Positions 1,958 through 64,000 of a stretch of 64,000 nt of DNA are shown here, piece by piece. Every line of letters starts with the position of its first letter. Position 1 is the first letter of the stretch. Origin of the DNA: Phoronis australis (Eukaryota; Animalia; Phoronida); contig NMRA01000124.1 in the NCBI GenBank assembly GCA_002633005.1, positions 844,902 to 908,901 on the forward strand, read 5' to 3'. A program made the position numbers and the translations under genes. Under the pieces are notes generated by a model. That model made no database searches, had not been told where the DNA came from, and saw nothing but the letters and a program-made list of their open reading frames with translations.

Positions 1958-32738
<30,781 letters not shown>

Positions 32739-33326: not shown

Positions 33327-36300
33327 TTAAAATGACAAGACGTCTTCGATGTAGTCTGTGCCAACATCGCCACCTATTGATATTGTCCTGTCGGTGGTCA
33401 GGTCGTCGTCGTTCTGCAAGAAGAGAAATGAATGTTATGAAAACATTTTAATCTTACGGTTCGACTTCAGTTCGACGAACACTTTAACATGAAGTGTTTC
33501 CTTCACGCTGTGAGCATGTTGGCTTGTGAAGCAGAAGCCACCAGACTGCTTTTCAGACAATGTTGAATTCTTATATGAAAACACAGCTTCACAATAATCC
33601 TTCACTAAGGTACAGAGATTGTTAATTTGCATGAAACTGTGGTAGTGGAAGTACGACTTCTAATGTGCTTTATGTTTCGAATGAAGTCTTCCTTGAAACG
33701 GACAGATTATACCTCTAGTGAAATGTCCTCTTCAATTTCTTCCTCAATTTCTTCTGCTATACTCTGCGACTTGGATTTCTCGGAGCGGGCACTTAGCGTT
33801 TCGCTCCTACCAGAACTGAGGAAATCGTCTTCATAATCATCATCAGGAACATCTGTCGGAAGTGAAACAAAATTAAAGGTGGTAGACCCGAGTTTGGTGG
33901 ATAAGACTGTTACATATCGAAACATCACGATCTTCGATAAGGTTACAAAAAATCGCAAAAGTGTCCTTGCATTCTCCAACAATCCTGCAAAAATTTGGTA
34001 TCCAACCCTTGCAAAATCTGGTCCGACATGATTGTTAAAGAAGACAAAATTTTTTGTACACATATCACAGATCACGATCTATAATGTACAGAAATTTGCT
34101 TTAATCAGGGCTTGGAATTTTCCGCGGAAACGCGGATTTCCGCTTTTTTCAAATGTGCTGTCCGCTTTTATTGTAATATTTCCGCATAATAAAAATCGGA
34201 TTTGATATAAAATTTCCGCGGCAAATTCCTTTCTTACCGCGGCGTTGCAGACGACGTTCACCTCGAAAAGCGGAAGTTGCTCTTTATGTTTCGGAGGAAC
34301 ATAAATTGTCAACATTGCCGGGGCACCTGGGACAGCGTGGTGGGATTTTCAATGGCGTCTCGTGTTATTGTTAAGCGCGGCGACAAATACTACCGCTCTG
34401 CAGCCAAAAATGTGTGGGGTTGGGAGTGGACGGGTGAGCTAAAAGGACGCAGACGCATGCTACTGATGGTGGTAACGTTTTTTTTTTTAGTGCTCCCGAT
34501 TTTTGTCAAGGAAAGGTTCACATTGACCATTTCAAGGCTGGTTAGCGGGCATGATTTGGGCCGTAAAAGTTTCCGCGTTTTTTTGTCATTGGTCATTCCA
34601 AGCCCTGTTTAATATAAATTTCAGCAACACTATTCGCCACTGTACAAGAAGCCGGTGAAACTTCTTCCTGGGGAACTTGTCCATATATTCACCTGTTTTA
34701 AATGGTGATTATGCCTGAAAGCAAACGCAGTATTTTCTCTAATAAGGCCCAGGGCAGCTGGTAAAGCCGTATTAAATTGTTTTTGCTGTAGACTGTATAC
34801 CTTGAAATGGGCAGGCTTTTCGTTTGATGTACGTAAAACTATACAGTAGAAAATAGGTTAGTTCTGTGACCTAACACTAAGTGGCGCTACCAGTCTATAC
34901 ACTGGGAGTAGTAGACTGGAAGCTATCGGCAACAAACTGTCGTTCTAACAGAACAATCGAACACACCACCTCCAGACTGCACCATGGTAAAGATTTACAA
35001 ACTTACCAAATCCCAGGTCTGCCATCTTCTTGTCAATGTCTTTGATATCTTTGTCAATTTTGTCTTCCTTAGCATCTGAAATATCAACAAATGTCCAGAT
35101 TTAGGGAGCACATAAGCATCAAAGCATTCACTTACAGACGATGCAGACACTTGAGGGTGTTAATACTCAGGGCTTGGAATGACCAATGACAAGAAAGCGG
35201 AAACTTTTACGGCCCAAATCATGCCCGATAACCAGCCTTTGAAATGGTCAAAGTGAACCTTTCCGCGACAAATATCGGGAGGACTAAAAAAAAAAAAAAA
35301 AAANGCGGAAATATTATAAAAAAAGCGGAAAGCACATTTCAAAAAAGCGGAAATCCGCGTTTTCGCGGAAAATTCCAAGCCCTGAATACTGCATTTTGGA
35401 CTAGATTACCCAGGTATGACGCTCAAGACTACGTTCCATAGGTTGAAAATGTGACTTCCCACTCAGAAGCACCTGGCTCCAATTACCTTTCTTGCTCCCA
35501 TTCATACCAGGGAGAGAGGGAGCATCCTTCAGCGAGAACGAGGACTTGTTGTCTGTCAGCGAGGGCAGTCCTTGCAATGACGACAGGCCAGAATTGCCAG
35601 AGGTGCCCCCCGTCTTCGTGACCTGTGGACTCTTCACTTGACCCGGTTTGTCCTTGTCCTGAGGTTTGGTTTTATCACTGCTACGAAATATATGAATATC
35701 ACTTTGCAGTTCAGTTTAATCCCATTTGTTGTACAAAACACGATATATCACCTCTTAGTGTTGACGCAAACAACCAAACAAGGTTTGTGTAAAATTTATC
35801 AGCGGAACAATGTGAAAACTTACGAATAAAAAGACAACGCAAAACAGATACCAAAACATGATGAAACATATCTTGGAGATTCACAGAGTTTCAAAAGCAA
35901 TACTAAAACAGGTGAAAAGCTGACAACAAATGTTCAGTGCTATGACACAGTATGGTAAGTGTGCCCAGGAATACGATCTTCACAAGTCTACCAATGACGT
36001 CAAACGGTCAACATTGCGGAAAAGTTTTGGCAATAATTTGATGTAGATTGCTCAAAATCATGAAGAAAGTTCACACAACAATAAAAACTGAAGAAGTTGT
36101 GTTTAAGGTAGAACTCAATAGCTGATAAAAATTCTACGCAGTCAAATGGGCACTGATACCTGGACAGAACGCCCTCTGCCAATCAGACTGTCACCAAATC
36201 ATGGGATAAGCAACCAAAAATACCGGGTAATCAACCATTTGACTGCGAAAACAGAACTTTTATCACGCAACTCGAGATTAGTTTGCTATTAATTACAAAC

Positions 36301-55948: not shown

Positions 55949-57063
55949 ATGGAAGAAATACATGTAATAACTGAATTTGAACCAATACAGAATAAAGAAA
56001 CTTTTGTGGCCAAAGCTATTCTGCGTCATAAAGACGAAATAGTGTCGGTTTTCGTAAATGGAGAAGCAGTGCCTGAAGAATTAGAGAAAGGAAAATTTTG
56101 CACCTTGTTAAAAGTTAAGAGGTCTTAACATGGCCTCTTGGTCAGCCAAGATACAAAGGTAATTTTTATGAAGTATCATCAATTATTTTCTAGCGTGGTA
56201 ATATAATTATTGTTTGTTACATTTTCGTGTGTTAATATACATATTGCTGTTTTTCATGTTATGTGATTATTGTCGTGGATCGGATAATTAAACATGTTAC
56301 CGTTGCTAGGTGGTAAGACTAAATCGTTTAAGTGAGTAAATGTACATTTATTTTACAGATTTTTCCCGACGTGGCACTCTTCGATTACAGCAAATCTACT
56401 GTAGAAGGATAGCCGAGGCCCCCAGTCGTTAGCATCGACGAAATCATCAATAGTCCTCGGAAAAGGCGAGTGTCAGTTGCAGCACAGTGACCAAGGTCGG
56501 AGAAACCGTAACTTACAAGAGCGGATCAGTGCGAAAAGTAATAAGACTGGACGATCAAGTTGATGTAAAATTATGGGGAGCTTAAAGTAGCTTCGACTTA
56601 AAGAAAATGACATTACAGCAATTTTGGCCTTAGAAACTGACGAATGGGAGAAAATCGTCAGCCTTAACAGCACTCTTAGTACTACATACGAGGTCAAAGA
56701 AGAGGAACATGAACTTCTATTGGATATTAAAGCTACCAACAACAGGTAAGACAGTATTATTTCTTCATACAAATTTTTGAGGTGCAAAGGTAGTAATACA
56801 ATCGTTGGTTTTGATTGTCATTTACCTTTCGATTTTCATGTAGGTATAATTTTCTTTTTAATTAATGTAAGTTTATGTTTTAGTTAATGTATTACCGTTT
56901 TGTATATTTATCGATCTTTAATGTCCTATGTTACACTGAGATTGTCACCATGGGTAGATAGGTATACCCGTTTTCGTGAATCATACCAAGTGATCAGCGC
57001 CCTCAGAAGGTCAAAGCAACCATTCAACGGGGTTCAGTGATCGAAATGAGACTTGTAGATTAA
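55949..57063 (+). pseudogene. Spliced tandem OB-fold (RPA/HIN-like) gene, copy A, disrupted
   Basis: Exon 55949-56158 (MEEIHVITEF...SQDTK|gt, in-frame TAA at 56126); exon 56359-56745 (IFPDVA...PPVVSIDEIINSPRK.RVSV..TVTKV...VDVKLWG, with stops and frameshifts); third exon to TAA 57063 with its acceptor mutated to CAC. Confidence 0.6.
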
Positions 57064-57544
57064 GGGATTTGGCATCAGGGTATTTTGTAGATACTATAAC
57101 ATAACACAAAAATTATTTTGACGTATTCGGATAGATGTAGTTGACATAATTTCCTCCTCCATAGGTTCAACGACTAAGGGCAAAGCAAAATTGCGAAAAA
57201 GATATTTGAGTGGCTCAGGTACCTACCAAGGCAGAAGGGAGCCCTGCTACTATGAGGCGCTAACTACAGCAAAATAATATCAGCTTTTAAAGTACTACTA
57301 GCTATTATCTGATTTCCTTAATGCATTACTTTGCAGATACCTCAGTCATAAGTAAATACGGTAAGGCAATACAGTGAACTCGACGTTGAGAACAACATTA
57401 TCTAGAAGTAAATAACAAATGCTGTGTACATACAAGAAAAAAGGGTACAAATGATGAGGTGTTTAAAATCGCTCATTTTCCCAATATAAGTCCTTCCAAG
57501 TACAGGACATGCAGTGCAGACTCTGTTCATGGTTATCAATTTTG

Positions 57545-58696
57545 CTATTTTGCGTCATAAAGACGAAATAGTGTTGGCTTTCGTAAATGGAAAAGCAGTG
57601 CCTGAAGGATTAGAGAAAGGAAAATTTTGCACCTTGATAAAAGTTAAGAGGTCTAAACATGGCCTCTCGGTCAGCCAAGATACAAATGTAATTTTTATGA
57701 AGAATCAATTATTTTCTAGTGTGGTAATATAATTATTGTTTGTTACATTTTCGTGTGTTATTATACATATTGCTGTTTTTCATGTTATGTGATTATTGTC
57801 ATGGATCGGAAAATTAAACATGTTACCATTAGTAAGTGGTAAGACTAAATCGTTAAAGTGAGTAAATGTTCATTTATTTTACATATTTTTCCTGACGTGG
57901 CACCCTTCGATTACAGCAAATCTTCTGTAGAAGGATATCTGAGGCCCCCAGTCGTTAGCATCGATGAAATCATCAATAGTCCTCGGAAAATGCGAGTGTC
58001 AGTTCGCGGCACAGTGACCAAGGTCAGAGAAACCGTAACTTACAAGAGCGGATCNGTAAATGTTCATTTATTTTACATATTTTTCCTGACGTGGCACCCT
58101 TCGATTACAGCAAATCTTCTGTAGAAGGATAACTGAGGCCCCCAGTCGTTAGCATCGATGAAATCATCAATAGTCCTCGGAAAATGCGAGTGTCAGTTCG
58201 CGGCACAGTGACCAAGGTCAGAGAAACCGTAACTTACAAGAGCAAATCAGTGCAAAAAGTAATAAGACTGAACGATCAAGTTGATGTAAAATTATGGGGA
58301 GCTAAAAGTAGCTTCGACTTAAAAGAAAATGACATTACAGAAACTTTGGCCTTAGAAACTGACGAATGGGAGAAAATCGTCAGCCTTAACAGCACTCTTA
58401 GTACTACATAGGAGGTCAAAGAAGAGGAACATGAACTTCTATTGGATATTAAAGCTACCAACAACAGGTAAGACAGCATTATTTCTTCATACAAATTATT
58501 GAGGTGCAAAGGTAGTAATACAATCGATTTTCATGTAGGTATAATTTTCTTTTTAATTAATGTAAGTTTATGTTTTAGTTAATATATTACCGTTCTGTAA
58601 ATTAATCTATCTTTAACGTCCTATGTTACAGTGAGATTGTCACCATGGGTGGAGAGGTATACCCGTTTTTCGTGAATCATACCAAGTGGTCAGCGC
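57545..58696 (+). pseudogene. OB-fold gene copy B (5'-truncated, internal N-join duplication at 58055)
   Basis: ILRHKDEIVLAFVNGKAVPEGLEKGKFCTLIKVKRSKHG; MRVSVRGTVTKVRETVTYKSKSVQKVIRLNDQVDVKLWG; exon-2 acceptor AG mutated to AT; ends at N58697. Confidence 0.6.
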
Positions 58697-59392
58697 NGTT
58701 TGTAACATTTGTCCGAAAATGAAATGACATCATCGCCTCTGTATTTAAACCTTTTTGCCGAATTTCATGAAAATCCGTCAAGAAAGTCCAAAGATATAGG
58801 CAAACATACTAAAAAACTTAAATTGCCCAAAGGTGTCATGTAATATAATGAGACACTGCTCTCCACGTGTATGCAAATATGTCTTAATCTATTCCCAGGG
58901 GATGTTCATACTCCTCCACGTGCATGCAAACATGTCTTAAAATATTCTCAGGGAATGTGCATACTTCTGTTTTGTGTTCTCACGTGCATGCAAACATGTC
59001 TTAGTCTATTCCCAGGGGATGTGTATACTTCAGTGGTAGTCGAGATTTCTAAAGGATGTACATATCTCTAGAGTGGCAATTATATGGAGATTTCTCACGG
59101 GATAGGCACATTCCTGGTGTAGCAAATCTAGGAAGAGTGGCAGTTATGCAAGAATTTTCTATAGGATAGTCAATTAGTTGGTTGTAAGAGAGATGTACTA
59201 AAAGAGGTGGGACCATCACGTGATGGCTCCAAAGGTATTATTTAAGACAGAGGCAGATCAATTAGACCGCACCGAACAAGACGACTGAAGTCTTCAAAAA
59301 CTGCAAAGTCACGATCTCAGCTAGACAGTGAACGGCAGGGACATAGGACCGGACGGGAAAACCCACGAGTCAAGCACAACCGAGGAAAAAAA

Positions 59393-59785
59393 ATGGCCGA
59401 ATCAATCTACAAAACACTACCCGCTGTCCGATTGGATGCATCGGTGGAAGGGCAGTGGATCGTCTTCCGCGTCGACCCCACGGCGGACGCCACTGTGTTG
59501 TCACTTGCAGATTTTGCAAGTATACAATACGGGGGTAATCAGACTCCAAAAGGACTATCGTGCGACAGACAGTCGTGGGGTGGCACAAAAGAAAGTGACG
59601 CCCAATACGCCCAGGTCTATTATGACCGGAGGGAATGCGTTGCGGATGTGGTCGACATTTTCTCACTGGAAGTGGAGATACAAGGGAGAACCAAGCATAT
59701 GCCTGTGGCAGTGGCAAACGTACCGGAGAGCCTGTTGGCGTCAGACTTTTTTCAAACGCTGCAGACTCATCCGTTACGGTTATAA
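59393..59785 (+). CDS. 130-aa retropepsin-like (retroviral aspartic protease fold) protein with degenerate active site
   Basis: Intact intronless ORF, GC-richer than its flanks, ATG in AAAATGG context. LDASVEGQWIVFRVDPTADATVLS parallels the retropepsin pattern V-x-I-N-G-x-x-V-x-F-L-V-D-T-G-A-x-x-T-V-I-S; LEVEIQGRTKHMPVAVANVPESLLASDFFQTL parallels the C-terminal LLGRDFL motif. Confidence 0.65.
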   Translation: MAESIYKTLPAVRLDASVEGQWIVFRVDPTADATVLSLADFASIQYGGNQTPKGLSCDRQSWGGTKESDAQYAQVYYDRRECVADVVDIFSLEVEIQGRTKHMPVAVANVPESLLASDFFQTLQTHPLRL

Positions 59786-60755
59786 ATAATTAAATAATAT
59801 GTAGGTGTAATGTGCTATATTCTTAGTTAGTTTAGTTGGGGTGGCACTTTCATGGTTAATTAATTAGTTACGATATGAGATATTTTGGTGGATTTGGTTT
59901 AAGGGGAACTGTGACTTAGTTATGATTTTAATGGATATAAAGTATATTTGTTCATGTAATAAGGGGTTGGTATAAAGTTTGTTTGGTAATAGAAACATTC
60001 TGTATGTGTGTGTTACATTATATCAATTGTTGGGAAAGTTTATTGTGGTTGATATTTCGTTGTGAGATGCTGTTTGTTAACCTGTTTAACGATCATCTGG
60101 AGGCTGACGACTTTCCATGTTTTATCATTGTTTTTTTTTGTATATCTATTGCAGTTGTATGGCGATCATCTGGGTGAAACTTTACATTGTCGGAAAATCT
60201 ACGACTTCCCAAAAATTTATTGTGTAAATGTTTTGGCTTAACAAAAGGGGGGAGTGTAATATAATGAGACACTGCTCTCCACGTGTATGCAAACATGTCT
60301 TAAAATATTCTCAGGGAATGTGCATACTTCTGTTTTGTGTTCTCACGTGCATGCAAACATGTCTTAGTCTATTCCCAGGGGATGTGTATACTTCAGTGGT
60401 AGTCGAGATTTCTAAAGGATGTACATATCTCTAGAGTGGCAATTATATGGAGATTTCTCACGGGATAGGCACATTCCTGGTGTAGCAAATCTAGGAAGAG
60501 TGGCAGTTATGCAAGAATTTTCTATAGGATAGTCAATTAGTTGGTTGTAAGAGAGATGTACTAAAAGAGGTGGGACCATCACGTGATGGCTCCAAAGGTA
60601 TTATTTAAGACAGAGGCAGATCAATTAGACCGCACCGAACAAGACGACTGAAGTCTTCAAAAACTGCAAAGTCACGATCTCAGCTAGACAGTGAACGGCA
60701 GGGACATAGCACCGGACGGGAAAACCCACGAGTCAAGCACAACCGAGGAAAAAAA

Positions 60756-60996
60756 ATGGCCGAATCAATCTACAAAACGCTACCCGCTGTCCGATTGGAT
60801 GCATCGGTGGAAGGGCAGTGGATCGTCTTCCGCGTCGACCCCACGGCGGACGCCACTGTGTTGTCACTTGCAGATTTTGTAAGCATACAATACGGGGGTA
60901 ATTAGACTCCAAAAGGACTATCGTGCGACAGACAGTCGTGGGGTGGCACAAAAGAAAGTGACGCCCAATACGCCAAGGTCTATTATGACCGGAGGG
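60756..60996 (+). pseudogene. Truncated second copy of the retropepsin-like ORF
   Basis: Near-identical to 59393-59633, but codon 50 CAG is TAG (60903-60905) and homology stops at 60996. Confidence 0.8.
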
Positions 60997-61504
60997 TCTC
61001 AGCCTGTTAGTCAATTCGAACCAGTCTAGCGATTGTTCTAGAGGGTTAGTTCTTTTGCGACTTGTAATGCGTTTACATGTGCGGTTGCTACTGGTAACTG
61101 GTGACATTGTTATTTAGTACTTTCCCCAGCAGTGATATCTCTTCTCGTTCAGTTAGTCGTCAGTCTCACATCTTATTGTAAACTATTGTTTGTTAATCAC
61201 AACGCTGCAAATTAATAGACGTATTTTATTGGTTGAGGTATTTGTGTGTTGTTTTAATTACTACCACGTGCACGCCATCTGTCCGCCGCAACACGATTCA
61301 TTACACCACAAAGTAAATACGGTAAGGCAATACAGTGAACTCGACGTTGAGAACAACATTACCTAGAAGTAAATAACAAATGCTGTGTACATACAAGAAA
61401 AAAGGGTACAAATGATGAGGTGTTTAAAATCGCTCATTTTCCCAATACAAGTCCTTCCAAGTACAGGACATGCAGTGCAGACTCTGTTCATGGTTATCAA
61501 TTTT

Positions 61505-62521
61505 GCTATTTTGCGTCATAAAGACGAAATAGTGTTGGCTTTCGTAAATGGAAAAGCAGTGCCTGAAGGATTAGAGAAAGGAAAATTTTGCACCTTGTTA
61601 AAAGAGGTCTAAACATGGCCTCTCGGTCAGCCAAGATACAAAGGTAATTTTTATGAAGAATCAATTATTTTCTAGTGTGGTAATATAATTATTGTTTGTT
61701 ACATTTTCGTGTGTTATTATACATATTGCTGTTTTTCATGTTATGTGATTATTGTCATGGATCGGAAAATTAAACATGTTACCATTAGTAGGTGGTAAGA
61801 CTAAATCGTTAAAGTGAGTAAATGTTCATTTATTTTACATATTTTTCCTGACGTGGCACCCTTCGATTACAGCAAATCTTCTGTAGAAGGATAACTGAGG
61901 CCCCCAGTCGTTAGCATCGATGAAATCATCAATAGTCCTCGGAAAATGCGAGTGTCAGTTCGCGGCACAGTGACCAAGGTCAGAGAAACCGTAACTTACA
62001 AGAGCAAATCAGTGCAAAAAGTAATAAGACTGAACGATCAAGTTGATGTAAAATTATGGGGAGCTAAAAGTAGCTTCGACTTAAAAGAAAATGACATTAC
62101 AGAAACTTTGGCCTTAGAAACTGACGAATGGGAGAAAATCGTCAGCCTTAACAGCACTCTTAGTACTACATAGGAGGTCAAAGAAGAGGAACATGAACTT
62201 CTATTGGATATTAAAGCTACCAACAACAGGTAAGACAGTATTATTTCTTCATACAAATTTTTGAGGTGCAAAGGTAGTAATACAATCGATTTTCATGTAG
62301 GTATAATTTTCTTTTTAATTAATGTAAGTTTATGTTTTAGTTAATATATTACCGTTCTGTAAATTAATCTATCTTTAACGTCCTATGTTACACTGAGATT
62401 GTCACCATGGGTGGAGAGGTATACCCGTTTTTCGTGAATCATACCAAGTGGTCAGCGCCCTCTAACCGTCAAAGCAACCATTCAACGGGGTTCAGTGATC
62501 GAAATGCGACCTGTAGATTAA
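61505..62521 (+). pseudogene. OB-fold gene copy C (5'-truncated, disrupted)
   Basis: Near-identical to copy B (repeat unit 61311-62538 vs 57350-58696); 5-bp deletion near 61604, TAA and TAG stops, lost acceptors. Confidence 0.6.
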
Positions 62522-63186
62522 GGGATTTGGCATCAGGATTTTTTTAAATAGTTTTGTTGTAAACGTGCCGTATTCCACGCAGTTTTTTGGGTGTTGGTTT
62601 GTGATAAACAGGTAGTAACGTTTTTTGGACACGAAGCATTGCTAACTTCATTAGTTCTTCCACGATCATTTTTTTTAACTTCCTTTACTTGTTTTCCCTT
62701 CTTAGATGCGTATCTTTCTGATTGTCTTGTTATAGTAATGAAGCTGTTTTCATTCAACGCCTATGTCAGTTAAATAGCCCAATATTGCCCGTGAACTCAA
62801 ATTTCGAAATAATTAGTTAATTTTTGAAAAATTTTCCTGATTGTCGACTACAGCGTACATATCAATATTACTGTTAACTTGTTTGATTGTAATTTCATGA
62901 TAATTTAATGCGTTGAATAAGCAAAAACTATGATCGTTCAAGAACTAATTAAACGCTTTAATTAAGTAAAACTTTGCTTTCAACTCGTTCTAGGACCTCT
63001 TGGGATTTTTTATTATAGAACTTGAATTTTATTGTATATCAAACATAACATCAATGCGTTGATGTTATTTTTGTATTTTACAACGTTCTCGGAAATTGAG
63101 TTTCGAGTTTCTGAGTTTTGGCAGCATTTGAAATATTGTTAAAATACAATGTGCGTTAATTTAAGAGGATTTTTGTAGATAACATA

Positions 63187-64000
63187 CCGTATTCGCCGTA
63201 ATAACCGCCCATGCCCCTATAAGGGCCCCCCACGCGTTTTCAGACTTTGCTGAAATAAGCGCCCAGTCCATGAACGTGTACATGCGAACAATGACGTACC
63301 TACAGTTCTAAAACTCGGCTACATATAAGCGCCCCCCCACGCGTTTTCAGACTTTGCTGAAATAAGAGCCCAGTCCATGAATGTGTACATGCGAACAATG
63401 ACGTACCTACAGTTCTAAAACTCGGCTACAGTAACGTCTTAAATTTACCAAAAAAATTTTTGCACGGGTCTTCTAGACCACCAGCGGCACTGCTACGATT
63501 GTATTTAGCCGTGACAAAGTAACGCAGCGCTTCAAAAAGAACGCAACAGCGTTGCTACGCTCTCGCGACGACCGTGTCCCATGGTCTGACCTTTCAGTAG
63601 ACACATCGACTGTCTCATGAATAAAAATAACTCGGTGTTAAACGCACGTGGCCATGAAGCGCGCGCTACATAACCTGTCATCAAAGACATTAGTTGGGAA
63701 CTATCCATTCATGAAGCGGGTAGCATAGCATCGATAAGAAATGAATACTGGAACTAATTTCCGACATTTTCAAAGACTATCAACATGTTTGCGTTATTTT
63801 TGAGATGGATTGTTTGATTAACCGTAATTGGTGTTATTAAGCCGAATATCCGATAAAATGACAACTGACACTGAATGCTTACACACCCTTACACCGAAAA
63901 ATAACTGTCAGATAGTTACGTACCCATCCAGCTACACGGCGACTAATATGGGCCTTGCCGAGACAAATGTCGAAAGTTTTTAGCACGAGACCGGCAAGTG
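63187..64000. mobile_element. Probable left end of a pogo/Tc1-mariner-type DNA element with an internal ~105-bp tandem duplication
   Basis: TA|CCGTATTCGCCGTAATAACCGCCC terminus; repeated ATAAGCGCCC-like subterminal motifs; duplication about 63220-63430; right end not in the window. Confidence 0.45.

Follow-up and report, generated by a model that had tools for sequence, protein, structure and literature searches.

A PBS-less LTR-type mini-element with a retropepsin-like, predicted inactive protein, likely copied from spliced RNA

LTR retrotransposons typically express their ORF3 genes through spliced mRNAs (PMC5408684). The closest cases are the GDSL and DEDDy ORF3s of the bdelloid Vesta and Juno elements (PMC5408684) and the env of Oikopleura Tor3a (PMC4402516), each an extra ORF ahead of the 3' LTR whose expression relies on a spliced RNA beginning in the 5' LTR. 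We analysed a 64,000-nucleotide window of Phoronis australis DNA that holds an element at 58839-61310 (plus strand) whose parent, as we infer, had the same layout. It differs from Vesta, Juno and Tor3a in its cargo, which is retropepsin-like with an altered active site, and its splice donor lies inside the LTR rather than near the start of gag as described for Tor3a (PMC4402516).

A genomic DNA copy of a spliced subgenomic transcript also has a precedent in the HERV-K rec retrocopy chr5q15_K-31. That copy, however, was made by L1 and needs a flanking promoter (PMC6091006), whereas the element described here has U3 upstream, a polypurine tract (PPT), a TG..CA end and several near-identical copies. 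The upstream U3, the PPT and the TG..CA end point to reverse transcription of the LTR type. TRIM, LARD and TR-GAG elements (PMC4350172) are likewise short, pol-less and dependent on helpers, and TR-GAG keeps one ORF; in contrast to all three, our element has no PBS, a truncated 5' LTR, a splice-type junction and an ORF that is protease-like rather than Gag. We discarded an identification as TR-GAG, which has a single gag ORF between two LTRs, because the ORF resembles a protease, and one as Troyka, defined in PMC12440569 by CG..CG termini and a 3-bp TSD, because the element is bounded by TG..CA.

The encoded protein shares with MEROPS family A2 and Pfam clan AA (EIAV and HIV proteases, Ddi1) the order and spacing of the motifs, the invariant Asp, the flap glycine Gly64 and the LL-x-x-D helix. 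It departs from A2 retropepsins in its D-P-T-A and LLASD motifs, a longer flap region, its own ATG and the lack of any homologue by sequence search. No accessory or stand-alone inactive retropepsin in a retrotransposon was found in the open literature, the subscription literature and Repbase being outside the scope of that search. We give an even chance to the reading that the element is a copy of the spliced subgenomic RNA of a longer Gypsy-like LTR element, and that its gene, in ORF3 position, encodes a pseudo-protease, predicted to be inactive, that would damp the parent protease through mixed dimers.

Anatomy of the element and its surroundings

Evidence on copies and RNA came from five of eight public runs listed for 'organism A', comprising DNA contigs X1 (sample S1) and X4 (sample S2) and RNA reads X5-X7, of which 18-19% of each run was sampled. 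Statements on loose ends draw on 24 of 141 rows for the window, those on ORF copies on 16 of 29 records, and those on variants on 40 of 101 changes. The window has single-N joins at 30702, 35304, 53704, 58055 and 58697; three of the five have near-identical sequence on both sides (1058, 522 and 196 nt; 98-99%), and these duplicates are probably uncollapsed overlaps or alleles. Elsewhere the window contains, at about 6-28 kb (5750-28278, plus strand), a spliced SNF2 chromatin-remodeller gene with matches to SNF2-rel_dom (E 8e-22) and Helicase_C (E 5e-11), which we take to be CHD3/4/5-like. There is also an interspersed repeat of ~500 nt in both orientations (15690-16212, 34102-34613 and 35168-35388; 91-96% identical), an acidic exon-like ORF on the minus strand at 33707-34078 that has no Pfam match and resembles the C-terminus of a centrosomal FOP/CEP43-type protein, and a 107-nt tandem duplication at 63218-63430 (96%).

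The outer features of the element are those that an earlier note on this DNA had read from it. Both repeats open with TGTAAT, at 58839 and 60255, and a PPT-like purine tract, AAAAGGGGGGAG, adjoins the second at 60243-60254; this tract is canonical on the plus strand, so a minus-strand orientation was discarded. A TATA-like box, TATTATTTAAG, lies at 59236-59246, with a copy at 60599-60609. For the right end, the TG...CA boundary at 61310 gives 10 of 13 inverted matches, and likeness to the paralogous flank at 57350 begins exactly at 61311; an end at 61305, with 8 of 13, was discarded.

Between these features the structure departs from that of an LTR element with a free-standing ORF as cargo, which the same note had proposed. 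Long, TG-initiated direct repeats are present (58914-59633 and 60277-60996, 99% identical with 7 differences in 720 nt), but they are not clean LTRs around a cargo: the repeat pair takes in the TATA-like box, the leader and codons 1-80 of the ORF itself. The 5' LTR is partial (58839-59385). It comprises U3, the TATA-like box and the start of R up to a splice-type junction, behind which a family contig departs, and the left repeat runs directly into the ORF with neither a U5-like end nor a PBS behind it. Its U3 contains two copies of a 53-nt tandem unit (58861-58965; 86%), of which the right LTR has one fewer (joint of 60278 to 58916). The ORF (59393-59785) is followed by a T-rich 3' untranslated region of 32% GC (59786-60242), the last ~250 nt of which are common to many relatives, and by the PPT. 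The 3' LTR (60255-61310) is a hybrid of U3 and leader, ORF codons 1-80 (60756-60996, with a stop at 60903), and a family R-U5-like tail (60995-61310) that shares a 2-nt GG overlap with the ORF piece at their joint and contains AATAGA at 61214, a possible poly(A) signal. The final 314 nt, 60997-61310, ending in CA, occur only in the right repeat. The element has no pol, and thus no PR-RT-RH-IN order to read.

Of the canonical features of an LTR element, then, the TG...CA termini and the PPT are present, and two complete LTRs, a PBS and a TSD are absent. No LTR end with TGG occurs between 59250 and 60254, the six CA..TGG matches in this interval all lying within the ORF or the 3' untranslated region. 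No TSD of 4-6 nt was found for any start at 58835-58842 combined with any end at 61300-61315, a result to be read with the possibility that the flanks are misjoined in the assembly. The element starts 142 nt past the N join at 58697, in a region with duplicated flanks, and its left and right flanks are unrelated to each other. Because there is no TSD and the flanks are unrelated, this site may have arisen by recombination, or by the joining of different copies during assembly. Searches for a tRNA or Rfam match, and for related loci in metagenome or viral contigs, found none.

Two further repeats border the element. Its right end sits in a unit present in three copies (56015-57086, 57350-58696 and 61311-62544; 91-99%) with short exon-like ORFs and GT..AG-like borders. 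The unit has no convincing Pfam match or homologue, and its ORF at 61895-62170 yielded no homologue among 63 candidates; it may be beta-rich, OB-fold- or Helitron-like. At 58747-58796 lies a high-copy short repeat with a near-palindromic core, on which RNA reads are ~90-95% of one strand, unexpected for a randomly oriented interspersed repeat.

A splice-type junction and a hybrid right LTR

The LTR exon (ending GAG) and the ORF exon (beginning with G, an A-run and the ATG) meet at 59382-59392, in what we read as a putative splice product. On the donor side, a single X4 contig agrees with the window as far as 59385, where it departs to give GAG|GT; its listed letters end in the same 7 letters that open the tail at 60995. 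This departure and the 7-letter match suggest that the family's normal LTR probably consists of U3, leader, ~23 nt and then the tail, with no ORF. Splice donors inside the LTR are known from foamy viruses and HTLV. On the acceptor side, one X1 contig matches 59391-59470 (92.5% over 80 nt), and in it a pyrimidine run and CAG|G immediately precede position 59391, itself two bases upstream of the ATG. In the window the donor and acceptor points of the two contigs are joined, with a longer A-run, whose length varies among copies, two X4 contigs having an A insertion at 59385.

The joined form is present as DNA beyond the assembled genome. In S1, an X1 contig covers 59205-59473 with 0 differences at a depth of 12.8, against 4-5 for single diverged copies, and the two X4 contigs with the extra A at 59385 probably represent it in S2. 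Near-identical contigs of the ORF (1 difference in 345) have depths of 16.8 and 11.9, compared with ~4-5 for most diverged contigs, which suggests that the mini-element is present in a few near-identical copies, depth being distinct from copy number. It is 99.7% identical to copies in two other samples, and hence young.

Since the normal LTR would continue past 59385 with a GT donor, a CAG acceptor precedes the ATG and the window joins the two points, the element is likely the reverse-transcribed spliced RNA of a longer LTR element. Against splicing stand the origin of donor and acceptor from one contig each, in different samples and with no link within one element, and 3 nt of microhomology at the junction, compatible with a microhomology deletion. 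No parental gag or pol was seen in the contigs examined, and no RNA joint occurs among the X5-X7 reads sampled, none of which demonstrates splicing. U3 (58860-59237) and the pre-PPT region (59994-60290) are common to many diverged relatives, mostly lacking the ORF and present in RNA; these relatives are candidate helper families.

The hybrid 3' LTR, in which U3 and leader, the ORF piece and the R-U5-like tail follow one another, is absent from the X1 and X4 contigs. Contig depths at 59539 are fully explained without the copy-2 variant, and no loose end is listed at 59633 (among the rows covered), so this LTR either occurs only in the individual that was assembled, was lost from the contigs or is a product of assembly. 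The reverse-transcription steps that we apply to it below follow PMC12789967.

A retropepsin-like protein and purifying selection on its reading frame

The ORF is intact, with 130 codons and its own ATG, and reads D-P-T-A (59474-59485) where the catalytic D-T/S-G-A belongs and LLASD (59732-59746) where LLG-x-D belongs, as had been noted before. The suggested likeness to retropepsins held up in comparisons of several kinds. Pfam gave no match to the 130-aa protein, and its only PDB match was the EIAV protease at E=1. Language-model (ESM) features placed it with RVP and Asp_protease_2 clusters at 0.92-0.94 (RVP at 0.94, from one source), with 160 of 256 shared features, under the 170 typical of same-family matches. 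Against a profile HMM built on bacterial PF13650 domains, taken from 29 of 30 loci, the protein scored 6.3 bits, a value attained by four shuffles among 2000 and by a single one of the 459 other frames of the window. Aligned with hhalign to the same 29 domains, the protein scored 20.9, which none of 150 shuffles attained, with both motifs in register and an HH probability of 10-13%. In this alignment Asp28 falls in an invariant column and the flap glycine is kept. Four weak but concordant signals make it, in our judgement, very probable that the protein is homologous to the retropepsins of clan AA.

Other searches returned nothing that could be used. None of 14 near-length and none of 400 longer candidates was a homologue, a PF13975 search found nothing in three of three genomes, and P0001, the sole match among 1.84 billion representatives, was dropped as a repetitive translation matching 18 residues. 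A single-sequence AlphaFold model (pLDDT 43) had no meaningful structural match. When guided by the retropepsin alignment, the model reached pLDDT 63 and its best match was the EIAV protease (Z 9.2, rmsd 3.1, 93 residues aligned; Foldseek E 3.5e-4), a partly circular comparison. The homodimer prediction score of 0.00 speaks neither for nor against a dimer.

The catalytic D-T/S-G of retropepsins is not matched, the ORF reading D-P-T. Thr30 and Ala116 stand in columns that are at least 90% Gly, and the Thr/Ser column is changed as well (Pro29). PMC8537868 describes the hydrogen-bond network of Asp-Thr-Gly as building the active site of retropepsin, an obligate homodimer. Because the motif is altered here, we predict with good confidence that the protein is catalytically inactive.

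The earlier note had held that the frame stayed open while the motifs changed. Purifying selection among diverged copies bears this out, but given the youth of the mini-element it is to be placed in the parent family. Identity in the diverged contigs is 81-93%. The ORF is free of gaps in all 16 of the 29 records covered, the only indel listed lying upstream of the ATG, and three contigs diverge directly past the stop, at 59787-59788. Among the 40 of 101 changes listed, 24 are synonymous, against 31% expected (p=1.2e-4), and 25 fall at third positions; the two other plus-strand frames have 6 and 8 synonymous changes of 40. A 139-codon antisense frame was discarded with 8 of 40, and one minus-strand frame that shares the ORF's third positions also has 24 of 40, with no listed ORF of at least 50 codons. 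With every change judged singly and lineages pooled, omega is roughly 0.3 from the 40 of 101 changes and would be ~0.6 if the remaining 61 were neutral. We conclude that this pattern shows purifying selection on the frame in the parent family.

Among the 40 listed changes, Asp28, Ala31, Leu115, Ser117 and Asp118 have synonymous changes only, and diverged copies carry such changes at 59476 and 59485 within D-P-T-A and at 59735, 59743 and 59746 within LLASD. The codons of Pro29 and Thr30, covered by diverged contigs and six X7 reads, have no change among the same 40 of 101, from which their conservation across copies may be presumed. Codons 62-66 vary among copies. In one lineage (X1, X4 and X7) the changes 59588 and 59589 are listed together and probably turn codon 66 into a stop.

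In X5 and X6 the ORF is covered by RNA at a depth of 2-9; most of U3 and the pre-PPT region reach 10-40 in the same runs, mostly through reads from relatives. Of the reads on the ORF, 9 of 29 in X6 are at least 99% alike, and all 11 in X7 are below 90%. No pile-up of read starts that would mark a transcription start for the TATA-like box occurs in these reads. First mates are almost all on the plus strand in X5 and X6 and mostly on the minus strand in X7, their direction being uncalibrated. Under the commonest stranded RNA protocol, a first mate on the plus strand means antisense RNA. The X5 and X6 RNA would then be antisense.

Competing readings, proposed mechanism and significance

The main competing reading makes the domain the C-terminal end of a longer ORF in the parent, such as a Gag fused to an inactive protease in a TR-GAG-like family without pol. 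An acceptor within the coding region would then be the sole origin of the stand-alone form, and selection would have preserved the domain for folding or particle entry. Pol-less, gag-bearing LTR elements are known (PMC4350172), and foamy-virus pol acceptors lie within gag (PMC7828637). In the X1 contig the 27 letters preceding the acceptor are free of in-frame stops, but nine open codons are expected by chance ~65% of the time, and the ATG stands 2-7 nt past a consensus acceptor, matched in the acceptor contig. We regard this reading as unlikely, if still to be reckoned with. Considerably less probable is an origin in the host: a gene, or a small gene family, would encode a retropepsin-like pseudo-enzyme, its last exon would have been captured behind an LTR donor and retrocopied, and the diverged copies would be host genes. 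Domesticated retropepsins such as Ddi1 and PEG10 exist, the acceptor-bearing copy is seen without LTR context and copy depth is low. On the other hand, diverged contigs also span the 3' untranslated region (59824-59964, with 16 differences), the pre-PPT region is common to many relatives, one lineage probably has a stop, and three large protein searches gave no annotated homologue.

That the locus is a functionless, decayed fragment of pol, fused to an LTR by microhomology deletion, would agree with the 3-nt microhomology, the absence of PBS and TSD, the probable stop in one lineage and the low RNA depth. Decay fits poorly with the synonymous excess, the absence of ORF indels in the 16 of 29 records listed, the onset of divergence directly past the stop codon, a junction that fits GT..AG with full acceptor context, and the exclusively synonymous changes of Asp28 and Ala31 among the 40 of 101 listed; we consider it very improbable. 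Slightly more improbable again is the same anatomy with an active or substrate-binding retropepsin of unusual active site. Asp28 is retained, its codon changing synonymously in diverged copies, and the foamy-virus protease has an unusual catalytic centre (PMC7828637), but both near-invariant Gly columns and the Thr/Ser column are altered, and it is the Asp-Thr-Gly hydrogen-bond network that builds the site (PMC8537868).

Our preferred reading, a retrocopy of a spliced subgenomic RNA, can be set out as a sequence of steps. The first step is observed: the window has LTR sequence joined to the ORF at the point where one genomic contig goes on with a GT donor and another has a CAG acceptor, and the joined form is present as DNA in other samples. 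The excised intron would have comprised the remainder of R together with U5, the PBS and the coding interior, which would place the ORF just upstream of the 3' untranslated region and PPT, the env/ORF3 position in the parent. The PBS-less RNA may then have been copied in a helper particle by strong-stop DNA primed on full-length RNA, with a template switch at the 2-nt GG overlap creating the hybrid 3' LTR. Purifying selection on the frame is evident among copies that are 81-93% identical. Catalysis is predicted to be abolished by Pro in the Thr/Ser column and Thr in the Gly column.

Inactive subunits can poison retropepsin dimers. It is conceivable, though somewhat short of an even chance and speculative, that mixed dimers of this protein tune the timing of polyprotein processing or limit sibling elements. 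Bolder and rather unlikely is the full proposal, in which an animal LTR family regulates its protease through a second, catalytically dead retropepsin encoded by a spliced accessory gene. The spliced RNA would itself have turned into a PBS-less mini-element; using helper strong-stop DNA to spread, it would supply a dominant-negative protease subunit and act as a self-limiting or defective-interfering module.

The timing of protease activation governs the maturation of retroviral and retrotransposon particles. If the proposal is true, a pseudo-protease encoded by the element itself would lend itself naturally to regulating that timing, and would extend the known ORF3 cargoes by a new type, or accessory genes by a new kind. 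The anatomy further points to a route by which non-autonomous elements may arise, one that combines splicing with trans-priming and needs no PBS.
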